Below, piece by piece: positions 5,979 to 51,276 of a stretch of DNA of 64,000 bases. Both the position numbers and the translations under genes were made by a program. Where the stretch lies: the sequence record OL770074.2. One strand, 5' to 3'. The number at the start of each line of letters is the position of its first letter. Positions within the stretch are counted from its first letter, which is position 1. The notes beneath the pieces were generated by a model. The model saw nothing but the letters and a program-made list of their open reading frames with translations, was not told where the DNA came from and did no database searches. Source of the DNA: Escherichia phage vB_EcoM-RPN187.

Positions 5979-5996
5979 GGGAGACTTCGGTCTCCC
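5979..5996. terminator. CUUCGG tetraloop hairpin terminator after gene 23 (bidirectional context)
   Basis: GGGAGA-CTTCGG-TCTCCC followed by ATTTTT; preceded by T-run on the other strand, so also serves the convergent minus ORF. Confidence 0.8.
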
Positions 5997-6006
5997 ATTT
6001 TTGGTT

Positions 6007-6276
6007 TTATTTCTGTGCAATTTCGATGTAAGTTTTCAAAATATTTTGCCAATTAGGCATACCTTCTTGGACATATGCCGGAGAACCATCTTTGTTTTTG
6101 AATGACGCAAGTTTATCAGTGGCCCAATAACCTTTAGCTCGAGCTTCGGAATCAACTTTCATCCATACTTTGTTGAAGGCATTACCATTAACTTTTGCAC
6201 CATATTTTTCTACTAATCTAACTGCTTCAGCTTCCAGAACTTTTAAAGTATCTCGTAAGAAACGTGCTTTAGTCAT
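6007..6276 (-). CDS. hypothetical protein (occupies the T4 segD position between 23 and 24)
   Basis: 89-aa ORF with its own early-type promoter upstream; no nuclease motifs. Confidence 0.5.
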   Translation of the reverse strand: MTKARFLRDTLKVLEAEAVRLVEKYGAKVNGNAFNKVWMKVDSEARAKGYWATDKLASFKNKDGSPAYVQEGMPNWQNILKTYIEIAQK

Positions 6277-6305
6277 TTTGTTTACTCCTCTGTAGTTGAT
6301 AAGTC

Positions 6306-6336
6306 TATAGTATCACATACCAAATACGTTGTAAAC
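6306..6336 (-). promoter_or_regulatory. T4 early-type promoter (GTTTAC -35, TACTAT -10) for ORF 6007..6276
   Basis: plus-strand tatagta...(17 nt)...tgtaaac is the reverse complement of GTTTACA-N17-TACTATA. Confidence 0.55.
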
Positions 6337-6342
6337 AATCTT

Positions 6343-6350
6343 TATAAATA
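6343..6350 (+). promoter_or_regulatory. late promoter TATAAATA for gene 24
   Basis: exact TATAAATA 28 nt upstream of gene 24 ATG. Confidence 0.6.
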
Positions 6351-6377
6351 ATCTATATCACATAAGGAAAAAATGCA

Positions 6378-7661
6378 ATGAGTAAAATCCAAAAATTATT
6401 GCGTGAATCTACAACGTCTACTAGCAACTCAATTGGTCGCCCAAATCTCGTTGCTTTGACTCGCGCTACGACTAAATTAATATATTCTGACATTGTAGCA
6501 ACACAAAGAACTAATCAACCTGTTGCTGCTTTTTATGGTATCAAATATCTTAACCCAGATAACGAATTCACATTTAAAACTGGTGCTACTTATGCAGGCG
6601 AAGTTGGATATGTGGACCGAGAAAAAATTACTGAGCTCACAGAAGATTCAAAAGCCACACTAAATAAAGGCGATTTTTTCAAATATAATAATATCGTCTA
6701 TAAAGTGTTAGAAGATACACCGTTTGCAGATATTCAAGAAAGTGATCTAGAACTAGCTCTTCAGATTGCAATCGTTCATTTAAAGGTACGGTTATTTTCA
6801 GATGCAGCGGTAACAAGCAAATTTGAAAGCTCTGATAGCGAAATTTCTGATGCAAGATTCCAGATTAATAAATGGCAAACTTCGGTCAAATCTCGTAAAC
6901 TTAAAACTGGTCTCACGGTTGAATTAGCGCAAGATTTGGAAGCGAATGGATTTGATGCCCCTAACTTCTTAGAAGATTTGCTTGCTACTGAAATGGCTGA
7001 TGAAATTAATAAAGATATTCTTCAGTCTTTAATTACTGTATCTAAACGCTATAAAGTTACTGGAATTACTGACACCGGATTTATTGACTTGAGCTATGCA
7101 TCCGCTCCAGAAGCAGGTCGTTCATTATATCGAATGGTGTGTGAAATGGTATCACACATTCAAAAAGAGACAACTTATACTGCAACGTTTTGTGTAGCCT
7201 CAGCTCGTGCAGCTGCTATTCTTGCTGCTTCTGGTTGGTTAAAACATAAGCCAGAAGATGACAAGTATCTTTCACAAAATGCTTATGGATTCTTGGCAAA
7301 TGGATTACCTCTTTACTGCGATACCAACAGTCCGTTAGATTATGTTATTGTGGGTGTTGTAGAAAATATCGGCGAAAAAGAAATTGTAGGGTCCATCTTT
7401 TATGCTCCATACACTGAAGGAGTAGATTTAGATGACCCTGAACATGTTGGTGCATTTAAAGTTGTAGTTGATCCAGAAAGCTTGCAACCGTCTATCGGAT
7501 TATTGGTTAGATATGCTTTATCAGCAAATCCTTACACAGTAGCAAAAGATGAAAAAGAAGCGAGAATAATTGATGGCGGGGACATGGATAAAATGGCAGG
7601 ACGTTCAGACTTGTCTGTTTTACTCGGTGTTAAATTGCCAAAAATCATCGTTGATGAATAA
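6378..7661 (+). CDS. 24: capsid vertex protein gp24
   Basis: 427-aa ORF (T4 gp24 427 aa); gp23-like fold expected; synteny. Confidence 0.93.
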   Translation: MSKIQKLLRESTTSTSNSIGRPNLVALTRATTKLIYSDIVATQRTNQPVAAFYGIKYLNPDNEFTFKTGATYAGEVGYVDREKITELTEDSKATLNKGDFFKYNNIVYKVLEDTPFADIQESDLELALQIAIVHLKVRLFSDAAVTSKFESSDSEISDARFQINKWQTSVKSRKLKTGLTVELAQDLEANGFDAPNFLEDLLATEMADEINKDILQSLITVSKRYKVTGITDTGFIDLSYASAPEAGRSLYRMVCEMVSHIQKETTYTATFCVASARAAAILAASGWLKHKPEDDKYLSQNAYGFLANGLPLYCDTNSPLDYVIVGVVENIGEKEIVGSIFYAPYTEGVDLDDPEHVGAFKVVVDPESLQPSIGLLVRYALSANPYTVAKDEKEARIIDGGDMDKMAGRSDLSVLLGVKLPKIIVDE

Positions 7662-7669
7662 AAAAAAAA

Positions 7670-7685
7670 GGGACCTTACGGTCCC
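7670..7685. terminator. bidirectional hairpin terminator between gene 24 and rnlB
   Basis: GGGACC-TTAC-GGTCCC flanked by A10 upstream and T5 downstream. Confidence 0.75.
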
Positions 7686-7692
7686 TTTTTCG

Positions 7693-8691
7693 TTATGATA
7701 CTAATTCAATCCATGCAGGACGCAGAACATCTTGCACCATTCGGACTAATTCTTTCTTAACAAGATTCGGATTATCAGATGATGTTAATACAATACCTTC
7801 ACGAGAAGTTTCTTCCAGAATATCTTGAACAGTCAATCCCATCACTTTGCCAAAATCTTTTGGCGTTACAGTCCCAATCTTAGAAATCACATTATTAACA
7901 CGATTTAATGTAACATAACAAGCTAGAACATCAAGCAAGTTTTTGTCAATTTCGGTTAATGGAACCTGAGTTTTAATAGGCTTATCAGACTTTTTCTTTT
8001 CACTGAATTTAGAGTTCTTGCACTTAATAGCTACACGAGTACCGTTTGGCAGCCATTTAGGGAAACAAGGCTTCAGAACATAACCTTCTGCCGTATTATC
8101 GCCAATAACATTAGCATCAAATACACAATTATTTGCTTCTAAAAGGTCTTCTGACGCAGTAGCATTATAAGCGGCTAAGACGGAATCAAGGTCGTTCGGA
8201 ATCATGATAAGAGAATCAAATGTTCCACGACCAAGCATTGGTGCCATTTTAAAACCGAATTCATTACAGAAATCTTGCATTTCGTAATCGGTCAAATACG
8301 TATTATCACCACTTTCTGTATTGATAAGGATATCGAACACATAAAAATCTTTTTCACCGTAGTCAACACCTTTCTGGATTCCACCGCCAGCGAATTCACC
8401 GAATACTTGATATGATACGGCTCGAGCTGCGTGCATTAATTCCTGAACGGCTTTAATAGCTTTATCATACTTCTTGAGTACGATTTCATAGCCGTAAAAA
8501 TCTTCTGCTGGAAGAATAGGGCCTGTGCGCTTGGCGCATGTGACGTTGTCACGTTCAATTATTAACGAGAAGTTGGTCCCATGGATCTTCTCACGTGCTA
8601 CCCAAACACCAGTAGTCAAACCGTTAGTGTAGAGGTTTTCAATAAACTTAGAGTTGTAGTGGTTTTCAAGACTGCTGTATTTCTTAAACAT
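7693..8691 (-). CDS. rnlB: RNA ligase 2 (RnlB)
   Basis: 332-aa ORF; nucleotidyltransferase motif I KIHGTN; T4 Rnl2 is about 334 aa; synteny after gene 24. Confidence 0.85.
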
Positions 8692-8783
8692 AAATCACCA
8701 TTATAAATAATAATATCAAAATAATTAGCAGAGACTCTATCTCTGTCCCAATGTTTAATTTGAATGGATAGAACCTAGATTCA

Positions 8784-8810
8784 TTATACCATCAAAAAAT
8801 GTAAAGCATA
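8784..8810 (-). promoter_or_regulatory. MotA-dependent middle promoter for rnlB
   Basis: minus strand reads ATGCTTTA (MotA box) - 13 nt - TATAAT. Confidence 0.5.
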
Positions 8811-9062
8811 CTAGAACTTGATTTCTATCCAGTGCCCATCACGCTGGTCGTGATTAATTTTGTACTGAAAGCCGTTATCACGGAACCACTGCCCGATTTG
8901 CTCGGTGATAGTTAAATCATTCTTTGACGGATAGTATGTAAATTGTGTCTGGCCTTTGTCAGCGGCTTTCTCTGCCATCACAGAGAAGTTAGTAATAAAA
9001 TCTTTCAACAAATTGGCTTTAGTGGCCAGGGCCCTTTCTCTTAATTCCTGTGCAAAACTCAT
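8811..9062 (-). CDS. hypothetical protein
   Basis: 83-aa ORF, start-overlaps upstream ORF stop. Confidence 0.5.
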   Translation of the reverse strand: MSFAQELRERALATKANLLKDFITNFSVMAEKAADKGQTQFTYYPSKNDLTITEQIGQWFRDNGFQYKINHDQRDGHWIEIKF

Positions 9063-9259
9063 TTCTTCACCTTTTTGTTAATAAAACGTTTACGGTATAC
9101 AACTTTTTCTTTTGCTTTAAACTTTGACCGAGCTGTCTCGGCTTTAGTCCATAGTAATCCAACTTCTTTAGGTTGTAAACCGATTTTTTGAGCAATTTCT
9201 ACGAATGAAAATCCCGCCTCATGTAATGTATAAACTTCAACTTCAGCTCTCATAATCAA
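9059..9259 (-). CDS. small helix-turn-helix protein (hypothetical)
   Basis: 66-aa ORF; segment LHEAGFSFVEIAQKIGLQPKEVGLLW resembles an HTH (sigma region-4/LuxR-like); basic C-terminus. Confidence 0.45.
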   Translation of the reverse strand: MIMRAEVEVYTLHEAGFSFVEIAQKIGLQPKEVGLLWTKAETARSKFKAKEKVVYRKRFINKKVKK

Positions 9260-9334
9260 TCCCGTATTATTTGGTTTGTGCCATTATACACATCAATCTC
9301 AAGATGTGTTTTGTATGCTTTAAAAACGAAGAAA

Positions 9335-9348
9335 GGGGCCGAAGCCCC
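9335..9348 (-). terminator. UUCG-tetraloop hairpin after hoc
   Basis: GGGGC-CGAAG-CCCC on plus gives UUCG loop on the minus transcript, followed by T-rich tract. Confidence 0.6.
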
Positions 9349-9354
9349 TTACGA

Positions 9355-10206: not shown

Positions 10207-10215
10207 AAGTTATCC

Positions 10216-10884: not shown

Positions 10885-10897
10885 GGTATTTCCTCAT

Positions 10898-10905
10898 TAT
10901 AAATA
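10898..10905 (+). promoter_or_regulatory. late promoter TATAAATA for uvsW
   Basis: exact TATAAATA 30 nt upstream of uvsW ATG. Confidence 0.55.
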
Positions 10906-10934
10906 TAACTATATTTATTACATGGTAATTTGAC

Positions 10935-12449
10935 ATGACTGACATTAAAGTACATTTTTATGATTTTAGTCACGTGCGCATTGAATGCGACGAAAGTACG
11001 TTTTACGAACTTCGTGACTTTTTTAGTTTTGAAGCTGACGGGTATAAATTTAACCCAAAATATCGCTATGGGAACTGGGATGGTAGAATTCGACTTTTAG
11101 ATTATAACCGTTTGTTACCATATGGACTTGTAGGACAAATAAAAAAGTTCTGTAATAATATGAGTTATTCTGTATGGATTGACCCTAAAATATTTGAGAC
11201 CGAAGACCTTACCAGGGAAGATTTTGACGCATGGCTTTCTAAACAAGAAATTTATTCGGGCAACTCCAAAATCGAACCACATTGGTATCAAAAAGATGCA
11301 GTATACGAAGGATTAGTTAATCGTCGTCGAATTTTAAACCTTCCGACATCAGCAGGTAAATCACTAATCCAAGCACTTTTAGCTCGATATTATCTAGAGA
11401 ACTATGAAGGTAAAATTCTCATTATCGTCCCTACAACAGCATTGACAACCCAGATGGCTAATGATTTTGTTGATTATCGCTTGTTTAGTCATTCGATGAT
11501 TAAGAAAATTGGCGGTGGTGCTGATAAAGCAGACAGAGCTAAAAACGACGCTCCAATTATTGTTGGCACATGGCAAACAGTAGTTAAGCAGCCTAAAGAA
11601 TGGTTCTCTCAGTTCGGTATGATGATGAATGATGAATGCCACTTAGCAACAGGCAAAAGTATTTCTTCAATCATCTCAGGATTAAATAATTGCATGTTTA
11701 AATTCGGTTTATCTGGCTCATTAAGAGATGGAAAAGCCAATGTAATGCAGTACGTAGGTATGTTCGGCGAAATCTTCCGTCCTGTTAGCACGTCTAAATT
11801 AATGGAAGACGGACAGGTAACTGAGCTTAAGATTAATAGTATTTTCCTTCGTTATCCGGACGAATTCACCGTTAAATTAAAAGGTAAAACATACCAAGAA
11901 GAAGTTAAAATTATTACCGGACTAAAACGACGTACAAAGTGGATTGCTCAACTTTCAGTCAAATTGGCTAAGAAAGACGAGAACGCCTTTGTAATGTTTA
12001 AACACGTTACACACGGTAAAGAAATATTTGAAGCTATTAAAGAGCTTGGATACGAAAAAGTTTATTACGTATCAGGTGAAGTTGATACTGAAACACGTAA
12101 CGCGCTTAAAGTCATGGCAGAAAATGGTAAAGGCATTATTATTGTCGCATCATATGGAGTATTCTCTACTGGTATTTCAGTCAAGAATCTTCATCATGTT
12201 ATTTTTGCCCATGGTGTTAAATCAAAAATTATCGTACTTCAAACCGTAGGTCGCGTGCTTCGTAAGCATGGTTCTAAAGCTGTTGCTACAGTTTGGGATC
12301 TCATCGATGACGCAGGTGTAAAACCTAAATCATTAAATACTAAAAAGAAGTATACTCATCTTAATTACTTGTTAAAACACGGTATTGATCGTATCCAACG
12401 TTACGCTGATGAGAAATTTAACTATGTAATGAAAACAATTAATTTATAA
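10935..12449 (+). CDS. uvsW: UvsW DNA/RNA helicase (SF2)
   Basis: 504-aa ORF; Walker A PTSAGKS, DECH box (MMMNDECHL), SF2 motifs; T4 UvsW 502 aa. Confidence 0.95.
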   Translation: MTDIKVHFYDFSHVRIECDESTFYELRDFFSFEADGYKFNPKYRYGNWDGRIRLLDYNRLLPYGLVGQIKKFCNNMSYSVWIDPKIFETEDLTREDFDAWLSKQEIYSGNSKIEPHWYQKDAVYEGLVNRRRILNLPTSAGKSLIQALLARYYLENYEGKILIIVPTTALTTQMANDFVDYRLFSHSMIKKIGGGADKADRAKNDAPIIVGTWQTVVKQPKEWFSQFGMMMNDECHLATGKSISSIISGLNNCMFKFGLSGSLRDGKANVMQYVGMFGEIFRPVSTSKLMEDGQVTELKINSIFLRYPDEFTVKLKGKTYQEEVKIITGLKRRTKWIAQLSVKLAKKDENAFVMFKHVTHGKEIFEAIKELGYEKVYYVSGEVDTETRNALKVMAENGKGIIIVASYGVFSTGISVKNLHHVIFAHGVKSKIIVLQTVGRVLRKHGSKAVATVWDLIDDAGVKPKSLNTKKKYTHLNYLLKHGIDRIQRYADEKFNYVMKTINL

Positions 12450-12464
12450 GGGCTTCGGCCCTTA
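12449..12464 (+). other. CUUCGG hairpin between uvsW and uvsW.1 (no T-run; RNA structure)
   Basis: AAGGGC-TTCG-GCCCTT overlapping uvsW stop, immediately followed by SD AGGAG of uvsW.1. Confidence 0.5.
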
Positions 12465-12474
12465 GGAGATAAAA

Positions 12475-12929: not shown

Positions 12930-12958
12930 GATTGCCTCCTAAGTTGAAATTACATATC

Positions 12959-21011: not shown

Positions 21012-21028
21012 GGGAGACGTCGTCTCCC
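21012..21028. terminator. bidirectional hairpin terminator after gene 54
   Basis: GGGAGACG-TCGTCTCCC palindrome flanked by A-run upstream and TTT downstream. Confidence 0.7.
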
Positions 21029-21331: not shown

Positions 21332-21360
21332 AACGTTTTCCTCATGTTGTTGATGGGATG

Positions 21361-21390
21361 ATAGTATCACACATCCATGTGTTTGTAAAC
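21361..21390 (-). promoter_or_regulatory. T4 early-type promoter
   Basis: plus atagtat...(16 nt)...tgtaaac, i.e. minus GTTTACA...ATACTAT, overlapping alt 3' end. Confidence 0.5.
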
Positions 21391-23477
21391 TATCCTTGGA
21401 CAAATTTAAATGGAACTGATTCTAAATCCATTAAAGATGCTAACAATTTCAATCCTTTAGGAGCACTAGTTTTTTCTACAAATGAAGAGAACGATACCGG
21501 CTCATCCGATTCGATTTCACCAGTCATAGCAACCACCTCGCCTGTTTCCATGAGAACATCACCATCGTAAATGACAGCTTCGTCCAACTGGTCTGAGGAC
21601 ATGACTTCAGCTTGAATAAATTTAAGGTTGGATTCTAAACCTGCACCAGTGTCAGATGACGCATCTGTAATTTTATTTATCTGCAAGAGAATGCCTCTAG
21701 GCAAAATAATTTCTTGCTCGTTAGGGTGATTACTCAACTGTCCAGGATAAATCACGTTAACTTTATGGGCGCCATCAATAGCCCATCCAACGTTAACACG
21801 GATTTGGTCTGGTGCATGCATAGCTGTTCTTACTTGACTAGGAGAAATAGTAACACCTTCGTCATTATTATCAATGTTAAGCTCTTTGCGAACTTCTTCA
21901 GGAGCAAGTCCAAGGGCAACGTTCTCTTTAAACCCGCCGAAAATAATAGGAGCTAGTGAAGTGGAAACATAGTTTCTGAAGTAGAATACCTTATTTTTAA
22001 CCATTGCTTCGTAAATAGGCATTCTGATAGACTGAGCTCTATATAACGTTAGTCCTTCAGGTAAACGGTCTCCATTTAAAAACGCCGAATCAAGACCATC
22101 AATAGCGCGTTTAACTTCATCTTCATCTGCAACATCGTAAAAATCTGGTTTATAACGACCTAACAACATATTATTGATATCGGTATACGCAGAAGAGGCA
22201 TATTCACGAATAGCTCGTTTTTCAGCAACAGAGTATTGATTAGGGACCCGATTCATTGTTATATTAAAGGTGCCTCTAGCCGATTCTCGTGCATAAGTAT
22301 ACATCACATTAGACAAGAACGCTGATTTACGCTGTTTCCAAGTTTTTTCAGATACTTCAGCTAAAACGTCGTCAGCCAGTTGGAAATTATCACGTCTAAA
22401 ATCTTCAAACCATTCGTCTTTAATAGAGTCTGCAATTTCATTTGCAGCTTCAACAAAAGCAGCTAATGCTTTAACAGATGTTGTTTTTTCAGTTTTAATT
22501 TTCTTAGCAAACTTTTCTAAAGTTGGCTTAATAACACTACCGTAAGAAACTTCATCAGCAAATCTAAAGGATTCATCAATACGATTATAAATCTTATTTT
22601 CGATATCAGCAACTAAAGTGCCTTTTGCTGTGGACGATGCTTGGGCTAGTACGATTTCATATGCTTCAGGAAGTAATTCGGCTGTAGCTGGGCCACTAAC
22701 TTCTTTAGCAGAATTTTCGTATTTCTGGAATAACTCACCTTCTTGACGGTCAGCTTCTAAAGATTGACTTGCTGCAATAGCACGACGAGAAATTTTAGTA
22801 CGAGCAATAACAGGCTTATCTTTACGTTTTTCTTCTACAGCAGCAATAGAACCAGCGATAGCAGTTTCTTTGGTGACCATTTCACCAGTCTTTTTACTCA
22901 CATAAACTTCGCCAACATCAGAATCTACTTTCGTGTACAACTCTGTGTTAATGTTAGGGATGCCTTTAATATCTTCAATGTTGGCATTTTTACGAACCAT
23001 CATCACATAGGTGTGTTTACCTGTGAATTGATACATTGCCGACAATACTTTAAAACGACCACCGGTTTTAGTAGAAACTAAACGAGCAAGAAGAGTTTGA
23101 AGTTGTTGTCCACGTCCTTTCAATTTCTTTGTAGGGAATCGGAACAGAACTGCATCCATACGAAGAGCTTTAACCTGTTCATATACTGTATTGAAAATGG
23201 TGTTGATTGCATCAATAGGAGCAGGACCAAGGCCGTTTTTCAATTCAGCGAGATTACCCTTTTCAGACAGACTCATAATAACAACATGAGCGTATTTGTC
23301 GCCAAGTTTAACTTGTTTTACAGCATCGCCTTCAGAAAGGTAAGAGAATAAGCGAACTACGATGTTTGTATCAACATCACCAATTTTCCAGACTTGTGGA
23401 ACTTTAGCTTTAGGGTTCAAATTGACGACAGGAAGACTGCCTTCAGATTCAAACACTTCATTTAATTGTTCAGACAT
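21390..23477 (-). CDS. alt: Alt ADP-ribosyltransferase (packaged, modifies host RNA polymerase)
   Basis: 695-aa ORF (T4 Alt 682 aa); position upstream of gene 54 block and downstream of gene 30 as in T4. Confidence 0.85.
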   Translation of the reverse strand: MSEQLNEVFESEGSLPVVNLNPKAKVPQVWKIGDVDTNIVVRLFSYLSEGDAVKQVKLGDKYAHVVIMSLSEKGNLAELKNGLGPAPIDAINTIFNTVYEQVKALRMDAVLFRFPTKKLKGRGQQLQTLLARLVSTKTGGRFKVLSAMYQFTGKHTYVMMVRKNANIEDIKGIPNINTELYTKVDSDVGEVYVSKKTGEMVTKETAIAGSIAAVEEKRKDKPVIARTKISRRAIAASQSLEADRQEGELFQKYENSAKEVSGPATAELLPEAYEIVLAQASSTAKGTLVADIENKIYNRIDESFRFADEVSYGSVIKPTLEKFAKKIKTEKTTSVKALAAFVEAANEIADSIKDEWFEDFRRDNFQLADDVLAEVSEKTWKQRKSAFLSNVMYTYARESARGTFNITMNRVPNQYSVAEKRAIREYASSAYTDINNMLLGRYKPDFYDVADEDEVKRAIDGLDSAFLNGDRLPEGLTLYRAQSIRMPIYEAMVKNKVFYFRNYVSTSLAPIIFGGFKENVALGLAPEEVRKELNIDNNDEGVTISPSQVRTAMHAPDQIRVNVGWAIDGAHKVNVIYPGQLSNHPNEQEIILPRGILLQINKITDASSDTGAGLESNLKFIQAEVMSSDQLDEAVIYDGDVLMETGEVVAMTGEIESDEPVSFSSFVEKTSAPKGLKLLASLMDLESVPFKFVQG

Positions 23478-23517
23478 AGTGTTTTCCTTTTAGTAATAAT
23501 TTATATTTATGCCAAAA

Positions 23518-23533
23518 AGAGCCCGAAGGCTCT
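23518..23533 (-). other. UUCG-tetraloop hairpin upstream of alt
   Basis: AGAGCC-CGAA-GGCTCT on plus (UUCG on minus transcript) followed by T-run. Confidence 0.55.
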
Positions 23534-23721
23534 TAATCCACAATCGGGAGCAAAGTACGATAAACTTCAAAATTAGGGCCTTTTTCGTACCCATTAACGT
23601 TATCTACGAAAACCCGATACGAATTTTCATTAGGAAAATCTAATATAATCTGAGAGCAAGAGGTGGAAACATCTCCACCATCCTTCTTAGCTACAATAAC
23701 TGTTTCTAAATAAGCTTTCAT
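23533..23721 (-). CDS. hypothetical protein
   Basis: 62 aa from MKAYLETV; start overlaps gene 30 stop (TAATG). Confidence 0.4.
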   Translation of the reverse strand: MKAYLETVIVAKKDGGDVSTSCSQIILDFPNENSYRVFVDNVNGYEKGPNFEVYRTLLPIVD

Positions 23722-27232: not shown

Positions 27233-27247
27233 AATATTTTCCTCAAT

Positions 27248-27263
27248 GGAGGCTTCGGCCTCC
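27248..27263 (-). other. CUUCGG hairpin (intercistronic)
   Basis: GGAGGC-TTCG-GCCTCC followed by ATTTTTA. Confidence 0.5.
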
Positions 27264-27273
27264 ATTTTTAAGA

Positions 27274-27639
27274 TTAGATATCGAATTCGTTAAGAACTAC
27301 ATCAAAGATTGCTTCGAGATGTTCAGGTTTAGCTCGATTGCTCAGGATGTGACGAATCCAAGTTTTAACCAGAAGTTTACGATTAACACCGTTCCAGCAA
27401 GGATGAGTACCTAAATCACGTTGACGGAAATCGTCATCTAATGCAATTTTGAAGTTGGAACCTTCCATCGTGATTGAAACCGTGATGCCATTTTCAAATC
27501 GCATATAAACGTAATTAGGAGTCATATACTGCTCAATTTCGCATACTGAGCCGTTATTATGCTTCCATAAGCAAATTGTATCGATAGAACCAGCGATACA
27601 GTTAGAAACATATTTACGTTCGAAGTTGATGTAGTTCAT
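27274..27639 (-). CDS. hypothetical protein
   Basis: 121-aa ORF. Confidence 0.5.
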   Translation of the reverse strand: MNYINFERKYVSNCIAGSIDTICLWKHNNGSVCEIEQYMTPNYVYMRFENGITVSITMEGSNFKIALDDDFRQRDLGTHPCWNGVNRKLLVKTWIRHILSNRAKPEHLEAIFDVVLNEFDI

Positions 27640-27679
27640 TTTATTCTCCAGATGTTTAAGTTGTTTGTTGGTACAGGTC

Positions 27680-27709
27680 TATAATAACAAAACCTGTACC
27701 AAAGTAAAC
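27680..27709 (-). promoter_or_regulatory. T4 early-type promoter with -10 embedded in an inverted repeat
   Basis: minus GTTTAC-N17-TATTAT; flanking inverted repeat ggtacagg/cctgtacc. Confidence 0.5.
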
Positions 27710-27713
27710 TGTT

Positions 27714-28082
27714 TTATGCAACTTTAATCCAATTGCCTAAATTTAAAACACCTTTGGCTTTCATTTTTTCGATCAGGTTATCTGCTGTAATGCGTCCATT
27801 TTGATACCATGTAACATCTTCAGAGTAACCAGTTTCTTCGTCAACATATGTTTCTGAGCGAATTTTACCGGTAATAATAGTTTTTAATTCGTATGTGTCA
27901 CCAGTGAAAAAGTTTGCTAACACAATTTTCCAAGAGAAATCATTTGAAGGACCTTCAGGGGTCATACAACTTATGAACTCAAATTGCTCTTTGTATAACA
28001 TCCACTGGAATTCTTTAATTTCGATAGCTTTATAACCGTCGTGGTCTTTACATTTGATGTATGAGTTCAGATTGATTTTCAT
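27714..28082 (-). CDS. hypothetical protein
   Basis: 122-aa ORF. Confidence 0.5.
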   Translation of the reverse strand: MKINLNSYIKCKDHDGYKAIEIKEFQWMLYKEQFEFISCMTPEGPSNDFSWKIVLANFFTGDTYELKTIITGKIRSETYVDEETGYSEDVTWYQNGRITADNLIEKMKAKGVLNLGNWIKVA

Positions 28083-28123
28083 TTTATTCTCCGGTTGTTT
28101 TATTGATTAGGTGGTACAAGTCT

Positions 28124-28153
28124 ATAGTAACACATCCTACAGGAGAGTAAACA
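28124..28153 (-). promoter_or_regulatory. T4 early-type promoter
   Basis: minus GTTTAC-N17-TACTAT. Confidence 0.5.
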
Positions 28154-28189
28154 TCTTTTTTAAACTTTTTCTGCCCTAAACGCACAAAA

Positions 28190-28207
28190 GGGAGACCGAA
28201 GTCTCCC
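28190..28207 (-). terminator. CUUCGG tetraloop hairpin terminator
   Basis: GGGAGA-CCGAAG-TCTCCC (identical 18-mer family) downstream of small ORF stop, followed by T-rich tract on minus. Confidence 0.7.
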
Positions 28208-28212
28208 TAAAA

Positions 28213-28392
28213 TTATGCAACAACCTTTCCAAAACGAGAAGCATCATCTCGAAGAACTGCACGTGCTCTGCGCATGATCTTCTCAACTGTTTGATTAATA
28301 CGAGAGTTCGACCCACGCTTGTATCCAGCGCGTTTAGAGGTACCATCAACTTTCTTTTCTACTGCTTTCTTTGCTTTAGCTTGTTTTGCCAT
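28213..28392 (-). CDS. small basic Lys/Arg-rich protein (hypothetical, not in ORF track)
   Basis: 59-aa ORF MAKQAKAKKAVEKKVDGTSKRAGYKRGSNSRINQTVEKIMRRARAVLRDDASRFGKVVA; terminator hairpin immediately downstream. Confidence 0.45.
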   Translation of the reverse strand: MAKQAKAKKAVEKKVDGTSKRAGYKRGSNSRINQTVEKIMRRARAVLRDDASRFGKVVA

Positions 28393-31654: not shown

Positions 31655-31673
31655 TTCTATTTCCTCATTTGTT

Positions 31674-31702
31674 GGTAGAGTTATAGTATCACAACTCCAC
31701 CA
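31674..31702 (-). promoter_or_regulatory. T4 early-type promoter
   Basis: minus GTTTAC-N17-TACTAT. Confidence 0.5.
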
Positions 31703-31714
31703 TGTTGTAAACCA

Positions 31715-31990
31715 TTAAATTGCTTTGCATTCAATTTTTTGTGAATCGAAATCAACTTCACATTGAATTACTAGATCAGCGTCAAGTCCAAACACAACAA
31801 TCACATGAGCCGAGCTTGGCAACAGTGTAACAGACACAGAATCCACTTGGTCTGGCACCAGCGTATTCAAAACGTAGAGTAGTTCAGAGTGGATCTTAAG
31901 CTCGGTGGCCGTATCCGGCTTATCAAAGAAATGATTTGCGATAATCTGACTAAAAACTACCTTTACAATTTCAGAATATTTAGGGAACAT
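31715..31990 (-). CDS. hypothetical protein
   Basis: 91-aa ORF. Confidence 0.5.
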   Translation of the reverse strand: MFPKYSEIVKVVFSQIIANHFFDKPDTATELKIHSELLYVLNTLVPDQVDSVSVTLLPSSAHVIVVFGLDADLVIQCEVDFDSQKIECKAI

Positions 31991-42404: not shown

Positions 42405-42421
42405 TTTTATTTGATAGGGCT

Positions 42422-42451
42422 ACTATAACATAGCCCTATCTTGTTATAAAC
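42422..42451 (-). promoter_or_regulatory. T4 early-type promoter with -10 in loop of a 9-bp inverted repeat
   Basis: minus GTTTAT-N18-TATAGT; IR gatagggct/agccctatc. Confidence 0.45.
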
Positions 42452-42843
42452 TACTTTTTAAAAGTTTTTTGCAAAAGTTTGATGATTTCGTCGACGTTGG
42501 TTTCATCTACGATACAATGGATTTTTGTTACACCTAAAGTTATACCTTCATTAGTAGGTTGAGGCTTTACTAAATCTACCTCAGTAAAGTATTTGAACTC
42601 GTCAGGATAAATCTCAAAATAAGTTTCAATTTCACCACCAGCAGAACATACCGTACCATCTTCCATAGTTACACTTACTACGTTTGACGTATCGCTATCA
42701 TAATCAGGTTCCATTCCGTTTACAACAAAACTAGGCCCGTGAAGTTCAATCAATTTTAACATCTTAGCGTTATTGTGTGGTGCTTCTTGAACAAAGTCGT
42801 CTTTAAACAAAGGGTTAATGATATAAGATTTTCCGATTTCCAT
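42451..42843 (-). CDS. hypothetical protein (frd.2 position)
   Basis: 130-aa ORF. Confidence 0.5.
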   Translation of the reverse strand: MEIGKSYIINPLFKDDFVQEAPHNNAKMLKLIELHGPSFVVNGMEPDYDSDTSNVVSVTMEDGTVCSAGGEIETYFEIYPDEFKYFTEVDLVKPQPTNEGITLGVTKIHCIVDETNVDEIIKLLQKTFKK

Positions 42844-42872
42844 TTTGATTTCCTCATGTTGTTGATAGAACT

Positions 42873-42901
42873 ATAATATCACATCTAGGGAAGAAGTAAA
42901 C
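42873..42901 (-). promoter_or_regulatory. T4 early-type promoter
   Basis: minus GTTTAC-N17-TATTAT. Confidence 0.5.
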
Positions 42902-42933: not shown

Positions 42934-42951
42934 GGGAGACCGAAGTCTCCC
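42934..42951 (-). terminator. CUUCGG tetraloop terminator after gene 32
   Basis: GGGAGA-CCGAAG-TCTCCC 7 nt after gene 32 stop, followed by T-run on minus. Confidence 0.8.
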
Positions 42952-42957
42952 GATTTA

Positions 42958-43860
42958 TTATAGACCAGCTAACAGGTCATCGAGGTCGCCATCATCAGAG
43001 GATGAGGTAGAGCTCATGAAGTCATCTTCAGTTTTTGCAGAACTAAAGGCTTCCATGTCTTTATCAAAATCGTCAAGGTCAGAAGCAACTTTATCTGCAA
43101 CAGAAGCTGCTGCGGCTGCTGCACCACCAAGAGCGGCAGTACCAAGAACTTGATTAAATTTAGTATTCAATTCTTCAAACGATTTGAACTTATCTTTAGA
43201 AGTCATTTCAGAAAGGTCAACCATTTGTTCGAACAATTCTTTCTGGAAAGATTCATCATCAATGTTTGGAATCGCAGATTGATTCAGGAATTTAGATTCG
43301 TCGTAGTTACTGAAACCAGAAACCTGTTTAACTTTCAGTACAAAGTTAGCACCTTCCCATGGGCAAGTTACATCAACAGGAGTTTCACCCATTTCAGTAT
43401 CGACTGCAATCATTGCATTGATTTTGTCCCAAATCTTTTTACCAAAACGGTATTTGAATACTTTACCTTCATTGTCTGGAGCTTGTGGGTCTTTAACAAC
43501 CAGGATATTAGCCCAATAAGAAGTTTTACGTTTCAGTTGAGAATATTCTGTTTTGTTTGTATTGTACAGATCATTTTTACTAATGTACTGACATACTGGA
43601 CAAGAGTCATAATCGCCGTGTGTAGATGAACAGGTTTCAATATACCATTTGCCGTTTTTCTTGAACCCGTGGTTAACAAGAATTGCAAACGGAAGTGCGT
43701 CATCTGTTTTTGCCGGCAGGAAACGAATTACCGCTTGACCATTACCGGATGCATCGAGTTTCAGCTTCCATTCACCTTTATCTTCTGAAGAGAAACCTTT
43801 GTTACCATTCAGTTTAGCCATCTGAGCTGCGAGGTCTGCGGTACTTTTACGTTTAAACAT
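42958..43860 (-). CDS. 32: single-stranded DNA-binding protein gp32
   Basis: 300-aa ORF near-identical to recalled T4 gp32; acidic C-terminal tail. Confidence 0.97.
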
Positions 43861-46138: not shown

Positions 46139-46170
46139 ATGAACCTCTTGTTCAGTTAGTCAACTTGACT

Positions 46171-46200
46171 ATAGTAACATACTCATTTGAAAGCGTAAAC
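46171..46200 (-). promoter_or_regulatory. T4 early-type promoter for rnh
   Basis: minus GTTTAC-N18-TACTAT. Confidence 0.5.
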
Positions 46201-46203
46201 TGG

Positions 46204-46211
46204 TATAAATA
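46204..46211 (+). promoter_or_regulatory. late promoter TATAAATA for gene 34
   Basis: exact TATAAATA 30 nt upstream of gene 34 ATG, divergent from rnh promoter. Confidence 0.6.
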
Positions 46212-46241
46212 AGTATTATTGAAACAATAAAGGAAAAACGA

Positions 46242-49200
46242 ATGGCCGACATCAAACGTAAGTTCAGAGCCGAAGACGGTCTGGACGCCGGTGGCGACAA
46301 GATTGTTAACGTAGCATTAGCCGACCGTACAGTAGGTACTGATGGCGTAAACGTTGACTTCCTGGTACAAGAAAACACCGTTCAAGTATATGATTCTACG
46401 CGTGGATATAACAAAGGATTTGTTGTTCTTTATGACAACCGTTTATATCAAGCAATAAATGATATCGTGTCTCCTTCCGGGGCATTTAACCTTTTACAAT
46501 GGCGTGCAGTTCGTACCGATGCACAATGGATAACTGTCTCTTCTGGGACTTATCAACTTTCTTCAGGTGAATCGATTTCGGTTAACACTGGTGCCGGCAA
46601 TGATATGGTTTTCACATTGCCAAATACGCCGGTTGATGGTGATACTGTTGTTTTGGCTGATATTGGTGGAAGAACCGGGACAGTTAAAGTACAGATTAAC
46701 GCGTCTGTGCAGAGTATTTTAAACTTTAGAGGTGAACAAGTTCGTACAGTTTTAATGACGCGCCCACGTTCACAACTATTGTTTGTGTTTAGTAATCGTT
46801 TGTGGCAGATGTATATTACCGATTATGGTAAAGAATCAATCACTGTTACACCTGCGGCACCATACCAAGCACAAGCAAATGATTTTATCGTTCGTCGTTT
46901 TACTAGTGCAGCACCAATCAACATTACACTTCCACGTAATGCTAACAATGGTGATATAATCAGCCTAGTCGATTTAGATAGATTAAACCCGCTGTATCAT
47001 ACATTTGTTAAAACATTTGATGATACAACGTCTATTGGTGAAGTCGGGACTCATATTGCCGAAGGCAGAAATGACTCTGACGCGTTTTTTGTTTTTGATG
47101 CTGCAAATAGTTTATGGCGTATATGGGAAGGCGACCAGAAATCGCGTCTTCGTATTATCCGTGCGGATTCAAATATTCGTCCAAATGAAGAAGTTCTTAT
47201 TTTTGGCACAAATAACGCTACAGCCGGAACTATTAATCTTACGCTGCCTTCTGGAATTTTGAGTGGTGACACTGTTAAAATTTCAATGAACTACATGCGT
47301 AAAGGCCAAACAGTAAAAATTAAAGCTGCCGAAGGTGATACAATTGCTTCTTCTGTTGCGTTGCTTCAGTTCCCTAAACGTTCGGAGTATCCACCTGATG
47401 CACAATGGGTCTCTGTTACTGAACTAGAATTCAATGGCACTACTTCATATGTTCCTGTATTAGAATTAGCGTATATCGAAGACACCGTTGCTGGTACACG
47501 TTATTGGGTTGTTAAACAAAACGTCCCAACTGTAGAACGTGTCGATGCTGGAACTGATGCTACACGAGCTCGTTTAGGTGTTATTGCTCTTGCTACTCAA
47601 GCGCAAGCAAATGTTGATTTAGAGAATACTCCAGCTAAAGAAGTGGCTATTACTCCTGAAACGTTGGCAAATCGTACAGCAACTGAAGCTCGACGTGGTA
47701 TCGCCAAAATTGCTACAACATCACAAGTTAACCAGAATTCCACAGCATCATTTGTGGACGATACTATTGTTACGCCTAAAAAACTAAATGAGCGTACAGC
47801 AACTGAAACTCGTCGCGGTCTTGCTGAAATTGCTACTCAGACTGAAACCGATGCTGGTCTTGATGACACAACGATTATTACGCCTAAGAAATTACAGGCA
47901 CGTCAGGGTTCCGAAACACTATCGGGTATAGTTAAATATGTATCAACTACTTCTGCTACTCCTGCCGAAACTCGTGGGGCTGCAGGCACTAATGTTTATA
48001 ATAAAACCGTAAATAATTTAACTATTTCTCCTAAAGCCCTTGACCAATATAAAGCAACTTACGCCCAACAAGGTGCAGTAATTTTAGCTATTGATAGTGA
48101 AGTAATTGCTGGACAATCTCAGTCTGGATACTCTCATGCTGTAGTAACTCCTGAAACACTACATAAGAAAACTTCTACTGATGGACGTATTGGTTTAATT
48201 GAAATTGCTACGCAAGCAGAAACTAATGCTGGGACTGATTATACACGTGCAGTAACGCCTAAGACGTTAAATGATAGGAGAGCGACGGAAGGATTATCCG
48301 GCATAGCCGAAATTGCTACGCAAGTTGAATTTGATACTGGAACTGATGATACTCGTATCTCGACTCCACTGAAAATTAAAACTCATTTTGATTCTTCTGA
48401 CCGTACCAGTGTTAATTCTGATTCCGGACTTATTGAAGAAGGAACCTTGTGGAACCATTATACTCTTGATATTTCTAAAGCAAATGAAACACAACGTGGT
48501 ACACTTCGCGTAGCGACCCAGGCAGAATCTAATGCAGGAACTTTAGATGATGTTCTTATTACTCCTAAAAAGCTTTTAGGGACTAAGTCCACTGAAACGT
48601 CTGAAGGTGTAATCAAGGTTGCAACCCAGTCTGAAACTGTGACTGGAACGTCAGCGAACACTGCTGTATCTCCTAAGAATTTAAAATGGATTGTGCAGAG
48701 TGAACCAACATGGGCTGCTACTACAGCAATTCGCGGATTCGTTAAAACTTCATCCGGTTCTATTACATTCGTTGGTAATGATACAGTCGGTTCTACACAA
48801 AACTTAGAGCTATACGAGAAAAATAGCTATGCAGTATCACCGTATGAATTAAACCGTGTATTGGCAAATTACTTGCCATTAAAAGCAAAAGCTGCTGACG
48901 CAAATTTATTAGATGGCCTAGATTCATCTCAGTTCATTCGTAGGGACATTGCACAGACGGTTAATGGTTCACTAACCTTAACCCAACAAACGAATCTGAG
49001 TGCCCCTCTTGTATCATCTAGTACGGCTACGTTTGGTGGTTCGGTATCTGCTAATAGTACATTAACTATTTCTAATACAGGTGCTTCAACTCGCTTAATA
49101 TTTGAAAAAGGTCCACAAACTGGAAACAACCCTGCTCAGGCGATGAATATCCGTGTATGGGGTAACCAATTCGCCGGCGGTTCTGATACATCTCGTGCTA

Positions 49201-50117
49201 CGATATTTGAAGTTGGTGATGAAACATCTAACCACTTTTATTCACAACGGGATAACCTTGGTAATATTACTTTCAGCATCAACGGTACAGTTCGGCCGAT
49301 TAATGTTAATGCATCCGGAACATTGAATGCTAATGGTGCGGCAACATTTGGACGTTCGGTGACAGCACAGGGTGAATTTATAACCTATAGTGCAAACGCA
49401 TTCAGAGCAATTAGTGGTAATTACGGATTCTTTATTCGTAATGATGCTGCTAATACCTATTTTATGCTTACTGCATCAAGTGATCAGACTGGCGGATTTA
49501 ATGGATTACGTCCTTTAGCTATTAATAATGCATCCGGCCAAGTAACGATTGGTGAAAGCTTAATCATTGCCAAAGGTGCTACTATAAATTCAGATGGTTT
49601 AACTGTTAACTCGAGAATTCGTTCTCAGGGCACTAAAACCGCTGATTTATACACCCGTGCACCGACATCTGATACTGTAGGATTCTGGTCAATTGACATT
49701 AATGATTCAGCTACTTATAACCAATTCCCGGGTTATTTTAAAATGGTTGAAAAAACTAATGAAGTGACTGGGCTTCCATACTTAGAACGTGGCGAAGAAG
49801 TTAAATCTCCTGGTACATTGACTCAGTTTGGTAATACACTTGATTCACTTTACCAAGATTGGATTACTTATCCAACAACTCCAGAAGCACGTACAACCCG
49901 TTGGACACGTACATGGCAGAAAACTAAAAATTCTTGGTCGAGTTTTGTTCAGGTATTTGATGGCGGAAACCCTCCTCAACCTTCTGATATTGGCGCTTTA
50001 CCTTCTGATAATGCAACAATCGGAAACTTGACAATAAGGGATTTCTTAAGGATTGGTAATGTTCGCATTATTCCAGACCCTGTGAATAAAACTGTTAAAT
50101 TTGAGTGGATTGAATAA
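46242..50117 (+). CDS. 34: long tail fiber proximal subunit gp34
   Basis: 1291-aa ORF (T4 gp34 1289 aa); internal repeats; synteny 34-35-36-37. Confidence 0.95.
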   Translation: MADIKRKFRAEDGLDAGGDKIVNVALADRTVGTDGVNVDFLVQENTVQVYDSTRGYNKGFVVLYDNRLYQAINDIVSPSGAFNLLQWRAVRTDAQWITVSSGTYQLSSGESISVNTGAGNDMVFTLPNTPVDGDTVVLADIGGRTGTVKVQINASVQSILNFRGEQVRTVLMTRPRSQLLFVFSNRLWQMYITDYGKESITVTPAAPYQAQANDFIVRRFTSAAPINITLPRNANNGDIISLVDLDRLNPLYHTFVKTFDDTTSIGEVGTHIAEGRNDSDAFFVFDAANSLWRIWEGDQKSRLRIIRADSNIRPNEEVLIFGTNNATAGTINLTLPSGILSGDTVKISMNYMRKGQTVKIKAAEGDTIASSVALLQFPKRSEYPPDAQWVSVTELEFNGTTSYVPVLELAYIEDTVAGTRYWVVKQNVPTVERVDAGTDATRARLGVIALATQAQANVDLENTPAKEVAITPETLANRTATEARRGIAKIATTSQVNQNSTASFVDDTIVTPKKLNERTATETRRGLAEIATQTETDAGLDDTTIITPKKLQARQGSETLSGIVKYVSTTSATPAETRGAAGTNVYNKTVNNLTISPKALDQYKATYAQQGAVILAIDSEVIAGQSQSGYSHAVVTPETLHKKTSTDGRIGLIEIATQAETNAGTDYTRAVTPKTLNDRRATEGLSGIAEIATQVEFDTGTDDTRISTPLKIKTHFDSSDRTSVNSDSGLIEEGTLWNHYTLDISKANETQRGTLRVATQAESNAGTLDDVLITPKKLLGTKSTETSEGVIKVATQSETVTGTSANTAVSPKNLKWIVQSEPTWAATTAIRGFVKTSSGSITFVGNDTVGSTQNLELYEKNSYAVSPYELNRVLANYLPLKAKAADANLLDGLDSSQFIRRDIAQTVNGSLTLTQQTNLSAPLVSSSTATFGGSVSANSTLTISNTGASTRLIFEKGPQTGNNPAQAMNIRVWGNQFAGGSDTSRATIFEVGDETSNHFYSQRDNLGNITFSINGTVRPINVNASGTLNANGAATFGRSVTAQGEFITYSANAFRAISGNYGFFIRNDAANTYFMLTASSDQTGGFNGLRPLAINNASGQVTIGESLIIAKGATINSDGLTVNSRIRSQGTKTADLYTRAPTSDTVGFWSIDINDSATYNQFPGYFKMVEKTNEVTGLPYLERGEEVKSPGTLTQFGNTLDSLYQDWITYPTTPEARTTRWTRTWQKTKNSWSSFVQVFDGGNPPQPSDIGALPSDNATIGNLTIRDFLRIGNVRIIPDPVNKTVKFEWIE
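47560..48690 (+). repeat. tandem coding repeats in gp34 (about 40-aa repeat units, at least 7 copies)
   Basis: recurring motif T-E/D-x-R/S-x-G-[IL]-[AI]-[EK]-[IV]-A-T-Q-x-E-x-x-A/TG-T-D-D/x-T-x-I-TPK-x-L. Confidence 0.6.
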
Positions 50118-50125
50118 GAGGTATT

Positions 50126-51253
50126 ATGGAAAAATTTATGGCTAAGTTCGGACAAGGATACGTCCAAACGCCATTTTTATCGGAAAGCAATTCAGTACGA
50201 TTTAAATTAAGCATAGCGGGCTCTTGCCCGCTATCAACATCTCCTGCTTATATTAAGTTCCAAGATAATCCACTTGGGTCCCAGGTTTTTTCCGTTGGAT
50301 TAAACGTTCGTGTAATAAATCCTACAACAGGTGCAGTAGTTGAATCTAAGTCATATAATTTCTCTACTGAAAACGACGCCACGTCAAGTGCATTTGTTAC
50401 TTACATGGACACATATGCTTCTAATTTTATATTTGCTCTTGTTACTAACGCTAAAACAAACTTTCCTCCTGAAGTTCTCGCATGGTTTACCAAAGTTGGG
50501 AGTTCTGTTATTCCATTAGCTCAACAAGTTTTAAATATAGTGGACATTTCTTATTCTGCATTTTATATTTCTGGTAAGAATGCTATAGCACTAGAACATA
50601 TTAAGTATAGTAATAAGAAAACTTCAACCGACTATAGTACACCACTTGATGTTGTGTACGACACGATTGATGATATTGGTGCTACCGGCTTTCCTAGTCG
50701 TACGTACGAATCGACAGACACATTTTTATCTGCTGTTGGAGGTACTAATAATGAAATTAAAAGGATGCCTACAACGTCCCTTATTACACCTCTCGCTGGG
50801 TATAAATTGAAGGCTGGAGATTTCCTTTATATGAAATTCCAACTAATGGCTGATGCTGATTTGTTAGCACAAGGGACGACACGACTTTCTATTCGTTTCT
50901 TTAAATCTCCTTCTACTTCACCTATTTCATTTAAGGATATAAACTTTGATGGGGGCGCAGGTGAATGGAAGATATATGAAGACTACATAGAAATTCCTGC
51001 CGGTGCCGACGGGTTCACGATTTATTGTTATCGTACAGCTCCAGTTGGGCAAGGTGGATTAAGAAATGTTATATTCACTGAAGTATCATGTAATGGAAGC
51101 GTTTCAAAACCTGCCGAGTTTGGTATAAATGGTATTCGTGTAAATTATGTTTCAGAATCTTTAAGTGCCCCAGACATATTGACATTACCTACTCAATCTT
51201 CAACTGATACTGGTAAGGTATTTGGACAAGAATTTAAAGAAGCATCAGAATAA
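50126..51253 (+). CDS. 35: long tail fiber hinge connector gp35
   Basis: 375-aa ORF (T4 gp35 372 aa). Confidence 0.9.
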   Translation: MEKFMAKFGQGYVQTPFLSESNSVRFKLSIAGSCPLSTSPAYIKFQDNPLGSQVFSVGLNVRVINPTTGAVVESKSYNFSTENDATSSAFVTYMDTYASNFIFALVTNAKTNFPPEVLAWFTKVGSSVIPLAQQVLNIVDISYSAFYISGKNAIALEHIKYSNKKTSTDYSTPLDVVYDTIDDIGATGFPSRTYESTDTFLSAVGGTNNEIKRMPTTSLITPLAGYKLKAGDFLYMKFQLMADADLLAQGTTRLSIRFFKSPSTSPISFKDINFDGGAGEWKIYEDYIEIPAGADGFTIYCYRTAPVGQGGLRNVIFTEVSCNGSVSKPAEFGINGIRVNYVSESLSAPDILTLPTQSSTDTGKVFGQEFKEASE

Positions 51254-51258
51254 ATTTA

Positions 51259-51276
51259 GGGAGACTTCGGTCTCCC
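51259..51276 (+). terminator. CUUCGG tetraloop terminator after gene 35
   Basis: GGGAGA-CTTCGG-TCTCCC (identical to the one after gene 23) followed by ATTTTT. Confidence 0.8.

Follow-up and report, generated by a model that had tools for sequence, protein, structure and literature searches.

Four identical C(UUCG)G hairpins at gene ends of a Mosigvirus genome as probable Rho-independent terminators

One hairpin at four gene ends

A 64,000-nucleotide (nt) stretch of Escherichia phage vB_EcoM-RPN187 (OL770074.2), analysed at its full length and referred to here as the window, carries the same 18-nt hairpin with a C(UUCG)G tetraloop after four genes: gp23, gp35, gp32, and a homologue of gp30.9. 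By megablast of positions 4386–9000 against GenBank phages, the best matches were AV113 (99%) and ST0, HX01, JS09, and PhAPEC2 (∼98%); all five are members of Mosigvirus, the genus of RB69-like T-even phages to which the window belongs. Based on the annotations of AV113, PhAPEC2, and T4, the genes mapped comprise gp19–gp24, rnlB, hoc, inh, uvsW, uvsY, baseplate genes, alt, and gene 30; the 30.x genes, rIII, 31, cd, pseT, alc, rnlA, denA, nrdB/A, td, and frd; and 32, 59, 33, dsbA, rnh, 34–38, t, asiA, motA, 52, ndd, denB, and rIIB. The four copies are placed as follows.

Copy 1, 5979–5996, plus strand: after gp23 (major capsid protein, 4386–5954), then UUUUUGGUUUU
Copy 2, 51259–51276, plus strand: after gp35 (50126–51253), then AUUUUUG
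Copy 3, 42934–42951, minus strand: after gp32 (single-stranded DNA-binding protein, 42958–43860), then UUUUG
Copy 4, 28190–28207, minus strand: after the gp30.9 homologue (28213–28392), then UUUGUGCGUUU

When both strands were scanned for exact matches to GGGAGACTTCGGTCTCCC, four occurrences were found in the window, compared with a chance expectation of 0 from 100 dinucleotide shuffles. Beyond these, no 18-mer match at up to three mismatches could be detected there. An earlier reading of this DNA, made from its letters alone (the original prediction), had named precisely these four places. In the sense of the adjoining gene, each copy reads GGGAGAC-UUCG-GUCUCCC and begins 24 nt after the stop codon of gp23, 5 nt after those of gp35 and gp30.9, and 6 nt after that of gp32. 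The stem lengthens to 8 bp at copy 1 (5978–5997) and at copy 4 (28189–28208). The tails that follow the 18-mers read AUUUUUGG, AUUUUUGU, UUUUGAGU, and (U)UUUGUGCGUUU, with U tracts of 4–5 U. The gp23 and gp35 copies have 25 nt in common (...CCCATTTTTG) and the gp32 and gp30.9 copies 23 nt (repeat family D17); past 23–25 nt from the hairpin start, the flanks of the four copies are unrelated and share just an A/T-rich context.

The open reading frame (ORF) ahead of copy 4 encodes a basic protein of 59 amino acids with 95% identity to T4 gp30.9. Both gp23 and gp32 are highly expressed in T4, and gp35 is a low-copy tail-fibre hinge. The suggestion that the hairpins mark the ends of the most highly expressed cistrons therefore suits gp23 and gp32; it does not suit gp35 or gp30.9. 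T-even DNA is modified; a GGTCTC (BsaI-type) site lies inside the hairpin, and its significance was considered and then dropped.

Conservation of the sites was followed using the 101-nt context of each copy. At ≥95% identity, the gp23 context could be found in 120 GenBank records, that of gp30.9 in 150, and that of gp32 in 152; across all four contexts the counts run from 113 to about 150 records, nearly all from Escherichia and Shigella phages. Such wide retention indicates that the four-copy state is a stable trait of this phage group and not an oddity of one isolate. PhAPEC2 has another exact copy of the 18-mer after gp8 (2249–2266 of its stretch). At the gp8 site of AV113 (158901–158918), the hairpin is GGGAGCC-UUCG-GGCUCCC, a single compensatory base-pair change within the genus.

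Predicted termination and the wider hairpin family

All four copies have a 7–8-bp stem with five G–C pairs and a 4-nt loop, in which UUCG and its closing C–G pair stand in RNA sense. The hairpins have ΔG values of −12 to −13.6 kcal/mol, and with flanks included, the folds are 2.8–4.2 standard deviations more stable than shuffled sequences (z −2.8 to −4.2); the 58-nt fold at copy 1, at −16.8 kcal/mol, gives the z of −4.2. A U tract, though short, directly follows the stem on its 3′ side and is confined to the transcribed strand, and every copy is found in sense past a stop codon at the end of a transcription unit. All of these sequence-readable features fit a Rho-independent terminator, and in this respect the terminator/stabiliser role that was originally proposed is supported by stem, loop, U-run, sense, conserved positions, and the annotations of relatives.

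The record of PhAPEC2 (98% identical) lists ARNold terminators at the gp23, gp24/rnlB, hoc, gp54, and gp30.9 hairpins, with the gp54 hairpin annotated as a terminator on both strands, and the record of NBG1 gives a "terminator" at the gp35 site. Relatives' GenBank records thus annotate three of the four copy sites, and the PhAPEC2 and NBG1 annotations are predictor-based. In Nolan et al. (2006, PMC1524935), terminators are predicted after g23 and between g35 and g36 in six of six T4-like genomes, RB69 included, and after g32 in five of the six. No matches were obtained when the entire window was scanned with Rfam at the gathering threshold.

We consider it probable that the four 18-mers are Rho-independent terminators of this RB69-like T-even phage that also cap mRNA 3′ ends, with the two-cause account of their identity given below. 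Structure, orientation, U tracts, positions, promoters, and conservation were read from the sequence, and from these we infer termination and stabilisation activity. Two points weigh against this: U tracts of 4–5 U are short, so termination may be just partial, and a literature search on T4 Term-seq or 3′-end mapping found nothing relevant. In the proposed mechanism, once the polymerase has passed the stop codon, the 7–8-bp G/C-rich stem with its C(UUCG)G loop would fold in the nascent RNA just before the tract of 4–5 U, leading to release of some or all transcripts, and the hairpin remaining at the 3′ end would slow 3′-to-5′ exonucleases. The hairpins after gp23 and gp35 would separate late transcription units; those after gp32 and gp30.9 would form the upstream half of a unit of terminator plus early promoter, insulating the next early gene. 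Two reasons may underlie the identity of the copies. One would be a small design space, in which a C(UUCG)G loop closes a short stem whose 5′ arm is rich in purines; the other would be short-patch copying, by gene conversion or template switching, giving each lineage a "house" stem.

The promoters found beyond the copies are listed below.

28124–28151, minus strand: early-type promoter (repeat family D4) with the sequence TTTACT-N17-TACTAT; located 37 nt beyond copy 4 and ahead of the ATG at 28082
42873–42900, minus strand: early-type promoter (repeat family D18) with the sequence TTTACT-N17-TATTAT; located 33 nt beyond copy 3 and ahead of the ATG at 42843
51284–51291, plus strand: late-promoter box TATAAATA for gp36, beyond the gp35 copy

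Downstream of each of the two early promoters, a leader and a Shine-Dalgarno sequence precede the start codon (ATG) of the following early gene. This is the layout of the promoter-early stem-loop (PeSL) cassettes of T4-type phages (PMC2839356; PMC4122927), in which a stem-loop terminator, an AT-rich stretch, an early promoter, a Shine-Dalgarno sequence, and an ATG succeed one another; the T4/PST consensus for the promoter is TTTACW-N17-TAYWAT (Arbiol 2010, PMC2839356; Comeau 2014, PMC4122927). Besides the copies after gp30.9 (28190) and gp32 (42934), the hairpin after gp52, with the related stem AGGGAGC, lies in a third unit of this kind. A stable hairpin ≤90 nt upstream was seen for 3 of 18 early-promoter motifs in the window. 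The copies at gp23 (5979) and gp35 (51259) lack an early promoter and close late genes, the former being followed by a small convergent ORF.

It had been suggested that the 18-mer might be a mobile terminator/stabiliser cassette. On one rival reading, a miniature transposable element or an excisable PeSL mini-circle module, with the 18-mer at its core, would have inserted at four places. PeSL cassettes do recombine and form mini-circles (Arbiol 2010, PMC2839356; Comeau 2014, PMC4122927), two copies have the PeSL layout, and early-promoter cassettes make up repeat families in the window. Sharing between copies nevertheless ends at 23–25 nt, with no terminal inverted repeats or target duplications at the copies. 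The gp23 and gp35 copies have no early promoter, and the contexts are stable in about 110–150 genomes. Terminators are conserved at all four positions in distant T4-like genera, and the sites are not insertions specific to one lineage. Judged as an element of the miniature inverted-repeat transposable element or repetitive extragenic palindromic (REP) kind, the 18-mer showed identity that ends at 23–25 nt, neither terminal repeats nor a duplicated target, and contexts present in about 110–150 relatives. Insertion as a mobile element is accordingly very improbable, and the suggestion finds no support in its transposon sense. A weaker form of it is supported: two copies sit in PeSL-type units, and stems appear to have been copied or homogenised between sites.

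The original prediction had also listed 11 shorter relatives of the 18-mer. All 11 are genuine hairpins, and eight have the C(UUCG)G loop (9333, 12447, 23517, 27245, 36846, 59113, 60844, and 63035).

7664–7691, both strands: hairpin of 12 bp, loop GUAA/UUAC, bidirectional terminator between the convergent gp24 and rnlB
9333–9350, minus strand: AAGGGGC-UUCG-GCCCCUU after hoc, identical to the T4 hoc terminator
12447–12464, plus strand: UAAGGGC-UUCG-GCCCUUA after uvsW, Shine-Dalgarno sequence directly 3′ and no U-run, thus an intercistronic hairpin
21012–21028, both strands: a fifth copy of the 7-bp GGGAGAC/GUCUCCC stem, here closed by a 3-nt loop and with A-runs and T-runs on its flanks, bidirectional terminator
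23517–23534, minus strand: AAGAGCC-UUCG-GGCUCUU plus UUU, upstream of alt
27245–27266, minus strand: 9-bp intercistronic hairpin between 30.7-like and 30.6-like genes, transcript loop CGAA
36846–36859, minus strand: GGGAC-UUCG-GUCCC between nrdB and denA, weak U-run
55006–55023, plus strand: AAGGGAC-UUCU-GUCCCUU plus UUU, after gp37
59113–59130, minus strand: AGGGAGC-UUCG-GCUCCUU plus UUUG, after gp52, 26 nt upstream of an early promoter
60844–60859, minus strand: GGCGUC-UUCG-GACGCU, intercistronic, no U-run, conserved in T4
63035–63050, minus strand: GGGGAC-UUCG-GUCCCC plus UUUUU, after rIIB

The hexamer CTTCGG occurs 35 times, compared with 16.7 ± 4.1 expected from shuffles, a ∼2-fold excess. 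Twelve of the 35 lie in stems of ≥5 bp, and all 12 are between genes; among the C(UUCG)G hairpins with such stems, UUCG stands in transcript sense in 11 of 12. The hairpin at 27245–27266 is the point at which the earlier list needs amending: its UUCG lies on the plus strand, antisense to the local genes, so that the transcript loop is CGAA. The hairpin at 21012–21028 lies between convergent gp54 and an alt.-3-like ORF.

Several further observations concern individual sites. In the 27245–27266 hairpin (AAUGGAGGC-loop-GCCUCCAUU), the 4-nt loop (27254–27257) is exactly inverted relative to AV113 and PhAPEC2, such that in transcript sense it reads CGAA in the window and UUCG in both relatives; the stem equals that of AV113, and the 3′ arm of PhAPEC2 is slightly different. 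The inversion looks like a hairpin-mediated template-switch event. The UUCU loop at 55006–55023 is one base from UUCG, and at the corresponding T4 site the hairpin reads AGAGGGGC-UUCG-GCCCUUCU. The small convergent ORF (∼6007–6276, minus strand; within 5997–6380), a homologue of RB69ORF188c, occupies the space between gp23 and gp24 that segD takes up in T4. On the minus strand the gp23 hairpin lacks a U-run, and inefficient termination of this ORF's transcript is expected.

Early-promoter cassettes (GTTTAC-N17-TAnnAT plus leader and Shine-Dalgarno sequence) form 54–91-nt repeat families with 60–85% identity, on the minus strand at 6286–6339, 21340–21393, 27635–27725, 28078–28168, 31662–31729, 42409–42468, 42838–42883, 61650–61717, and 62172–62239. 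Within gp34 (46242–50117), the gene for the proximal long tail fibre, periodic in-frame repeats occupy 47544–48356, partly at ∼108–120-nt spacing (families D3, D8, and D10).

The stems in viromes and across T4-like lineages

Searches of IMG/VR found the exact 18-mer in at least 120 stretches. These are unrelated viral contigs, with a GC content of 30–63% among the matches listed, and in most of the matches listed a T-run in the same orientation follows the 18-mer. A control stem of the same composition (GGAGGAC...GUCCUCC) occurred in 108 stretches. With both stems common, hairpins of this kind evidently arise readily and the sequence itself is generic; GGGAGAC as a uniquely favoured stem across viromes was dropped, the control being about as common. 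The arm-swapped 18-mer occurred in 47 stretches compared with at least 120, which is at least 2.5-fold rarer, pointing to a preference, roughly two-fold or more, for a purine-rich 5′ arm.

This bias in arm orientation, together with the orientation of UUCG, favours a role at the RNA level. Were the palindromes to work instead as DNA (cruciforms, recombination hotspots, or replication pause sites), orientation should be indifferent. UUCG in transcript sense in 11 of 12 hairpins, a U-run on that strand only, and the rarity of the arm-swapped sequence therefore all count against it. Stem-loops are seen at recombination junctions in the PeSL literature, and the loop inversion at 27245 shows that a DNA hairpin can join in template switching; even so, DNA-level function as the explanation of the 18-mers seems highly unlikely.

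For comparison between lineages, terminators were gathered after gp23, gp32, and gp30.9 and upstream of gp36 from T4 and T4-like genomes of IMG/VR. The g35 terminators were reached via gp36 alignment, as a gp35 protein search gave just two fragments. The lineage names EcS1, Serratia CHI14, Citrobacter Moon, and VR25 are megablast assignments of IMG/VR genomes. Contigs with 94–95% gp23 identity were entertained as Mosigvirus variants and rejected, their gp30.9, g32, and g35 terminators matching or closely resembling those of T4, which makes them Tequatrovirus-like.

This window: GGGAGAC at g23, g35, g32, and gp30.9
CHI14: GGGAGAC at g23, g35, and g32
EcS1: GGGAGAC at g23, g35, and g32; four exact copies in the 34 kb covered
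Moon and relatives: GGAGCC at g23 and g32
VR25: GGGACC at g23, GGACC at g35, GGGACC at g32
T4: GGGAACC at g23; GGGACC/GGUUCC (imperfect) at g35; GGGGACC with a CUAGA loop at g32

Stems at separate gene ends thus tend to agree within a genome and to differ among lineages. Identical hairpins at different sites made up 15 of 50 comparisons within a genome compared with 7.5% between lineages (20 lineages), and the mean edit distance within a genome was 4.02 compared with 5.10 ± 0.28 on permutation (p ∼8e-4). For the three core sites alone, the values were 3.23 and 4.73, respectively (p ∼4e-4). In Moon, the g23 and g32 terminators are identical over 34–36 nt, including the tail UUUUGUUGUUUCUGGA, so that identity extends 16 nt past the hairpin. 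The T4 terminators of g23 and g35 (106536 and 155810) have the 3′ half CUUCGGGUUCCCUUUUU in common; elsewhere in the T4 genome, AGGGGCUUCGGCCCCU occurs exactly three times (29952, 69291, and 110165; after regA, e.6, and hoc), and GGACUCC-UUCG follows both soc and 30.9 (15303 and 130339). The gp30.9 site carries G(A/G)GGACUCC-UUCG/UACG in T4 and in the majority of the other lineages. GGGAGAC is found there solely in this lineage, within an intergenic region that is homologous and whose promoter part can still be aligned. The VR25 g23 stem (GGGACC) is unlike that of its closest gp23 relatives (JS98-like, GGGAGAC) and like its own g32 and g35 stems, and the VR25 g23 terminator is a candidate for a recent homogenisation event.

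One account of the identity does without copying: the terminator/stabiliser function would be the same, with GGGAGAC retained from an ancestor or converged upon at each site, few stems being suitable. Presence of the 18-mer in at least 120 unrelated viral contigs, mostly with T-run tails, and of the permuted stem in 108 speaks for this account, and the idea of a convergently maintained element is partly borne out, given that unrelated phages also have this 18-mer as a terminator. Further in its favour, GGGAGAC after g23 turns up in separate parts of the gp23 tree and is probably the ancestral stem at that site, the four flanks have no common sequence beyond their A/T-rich context, and T4 too holds a hairpin, AGGGGCUUCGGCCCCU, in three exact copies. 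It would, however, require parallel compensatory changes for GGAGCC twice in Moon, for GGGACC two or three times in VR25, and for the GGGAACC-type stems of g23 and g35 in T4. It also meets with the Moon identity that reaches 16 nt past the hairpin and with a gp30.9 stem derived in this lineage alone. Retention or convergence without copying is possible on these grounds, and we hold it to be the less probable explanation.

Whichever stem is ancestral, at least two internally uniform sets must be derived, and these would have arisen either by copying or by double (compensatory) changes made in parallel at several sites. T4-type recombination operates on patches of <50 bp (Arbiol 2010, PMC2839356). 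Copying is favoured over pure convergence or retention by the derived uniform sets, by these recombination patches, and by the loop inversion at 27245. On present sequences, that copying or homogenisation of terminators within a T4-like genome contributes to their identity is an evenly balanced proposition. We infer a copying mechanism from the same comparisons. A broader proposal, offered more tentatively, is that core-gene-end terminators, non-PeSL late ones included, may evolve in concert, one terminator being overwritten time and again by another of its genome through short-patch copying (gene conversion or hairpin-primed template switching).

Several points weigh against the copying component. 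Identity between copies in the window stops 23–25 nt from the hairpin start, and the common control stem (108 stretches) makes recurrent independent origin feasible. GGGAGAC at g23, g35, and g32 may be ancestral and simply retained. When GGGAGAC-rich lineages were left out, the within-genome excess was small (2 of 32 compared with 1.4%), and the lineages in the permutation test share ancestry and are not phylogenetically independent.

The lineage comparison also bears on the idea that gp23, gp32, gp35, and gp30.9 are co-regulated through their identical hairpins, which would serve as a common RNA operator or processing signal for a phage protein or for a nuclease such as RegB, which acts at GGAG. 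Exact identity at four genes would suit such a signal, and the stem does hold GGAG, the RegB core motif. This GGAG is, however, buried in a stable stem, and secondary structure protects from RegB cleavage, nor are late transcripts RegB substrates (PMC3014915); UUCG loops, moreover, are described as protein-non-binding (PMC4371310). Other lineages have different stems at the same sites, the same 18-mer serves unrelated phages, and the four genes fall in different temporal classes, all of which leave a common operator with very little probability.

Relation to known hairpins and significance

C(UUCG)G hairpins in T4 intercistronic regions were reportedly described by Tuerk et al. in 1988 (PNAS 85:1364). 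In later papers that cite Tuerk 1988 (PMC8948821, PMC4371310), CUUCGG hairpins are described as common in phage intergenic regions and especially abundant in T4. In our scan of T4, a UUCG loop on a stem of ≥5 bp was found in 34 hairpins, of which more than 20 have the C(UUCG)G form; those orthologous to hairpins in the window lie after hoc (identical), between ac and ndd, after 30.9, and after g23. The T4 hairpins thus have the same loop, closing pair, intergenic place, transcript-sense orientation, and phage family. They differ in that the window uses one 7-bp stem four times exactly, whereas T4 repeats AGGGGC three times, GGACUCC twice, and GGGAACC at g23/g35. Three of the four copies also fall at terminators of Nolan et al. 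(2006, PMC1524935), in which RB69 is among the genomes analysed; the available portion of that paper gives TransTerm positions, with no statement of one shared sequence and no mention of the gp30.9 site.

The PeSL papers likewise describe a lineage-specific stem-loop consensus (Comeau 2014, PMC4122927; Arbiol 2010, PMC2839356). In contrast to PeSLs, the gp23 and gp35 copies end late genes without an early promoter, and the sites are at core genes and not in hyperplastic ORFan regions.

Palindromes of the REP and bacterial interspersed mosaic element type are short repeated intergenic hairpins at gene 3′ ends, able to stabilise upstream mRNA. REP elements are longer and number in the hundreds, their family consensus extends past the stem, and a dedicated transposase-like protein mobilises them. 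The 18-mer copies show none of this length, copy number, extended consensus, or transposase-like mobiliser.

Published papers or public records already cover the element type, the positions, and even the annotation of these hairpins. A literature search on UUCG-tetraloop intrinsic terminators in phages gave no match. In the literature covered, we did not find mention of a single exact hairpin serving at the ends of four or five core genes, both throughout one genus and in two further genera, nor of lineage-specific "house" stems that include late-gene terminators. The PeSL papers do, even so, give a lineage-specific stem-loop consensus.

For annotation, these hairpins are to be treated as ordinary intrinsic terminators, in a compact and portable 18-nt design that is used by many phages. 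If concerted evolution holds true, terminators would be genus-specific "house" elements, and identical recombination substrates of 18–36 nt would be scattered over the chromosome. Within-genome homogenisation, if confirmed, would widen the PeSL idea, in which regulatory cassettes are substrates for recombination, to include the terminators of core and late genes, and would supply a simple means of tracing short-patch recombination in this highly recombinogenic phage group.

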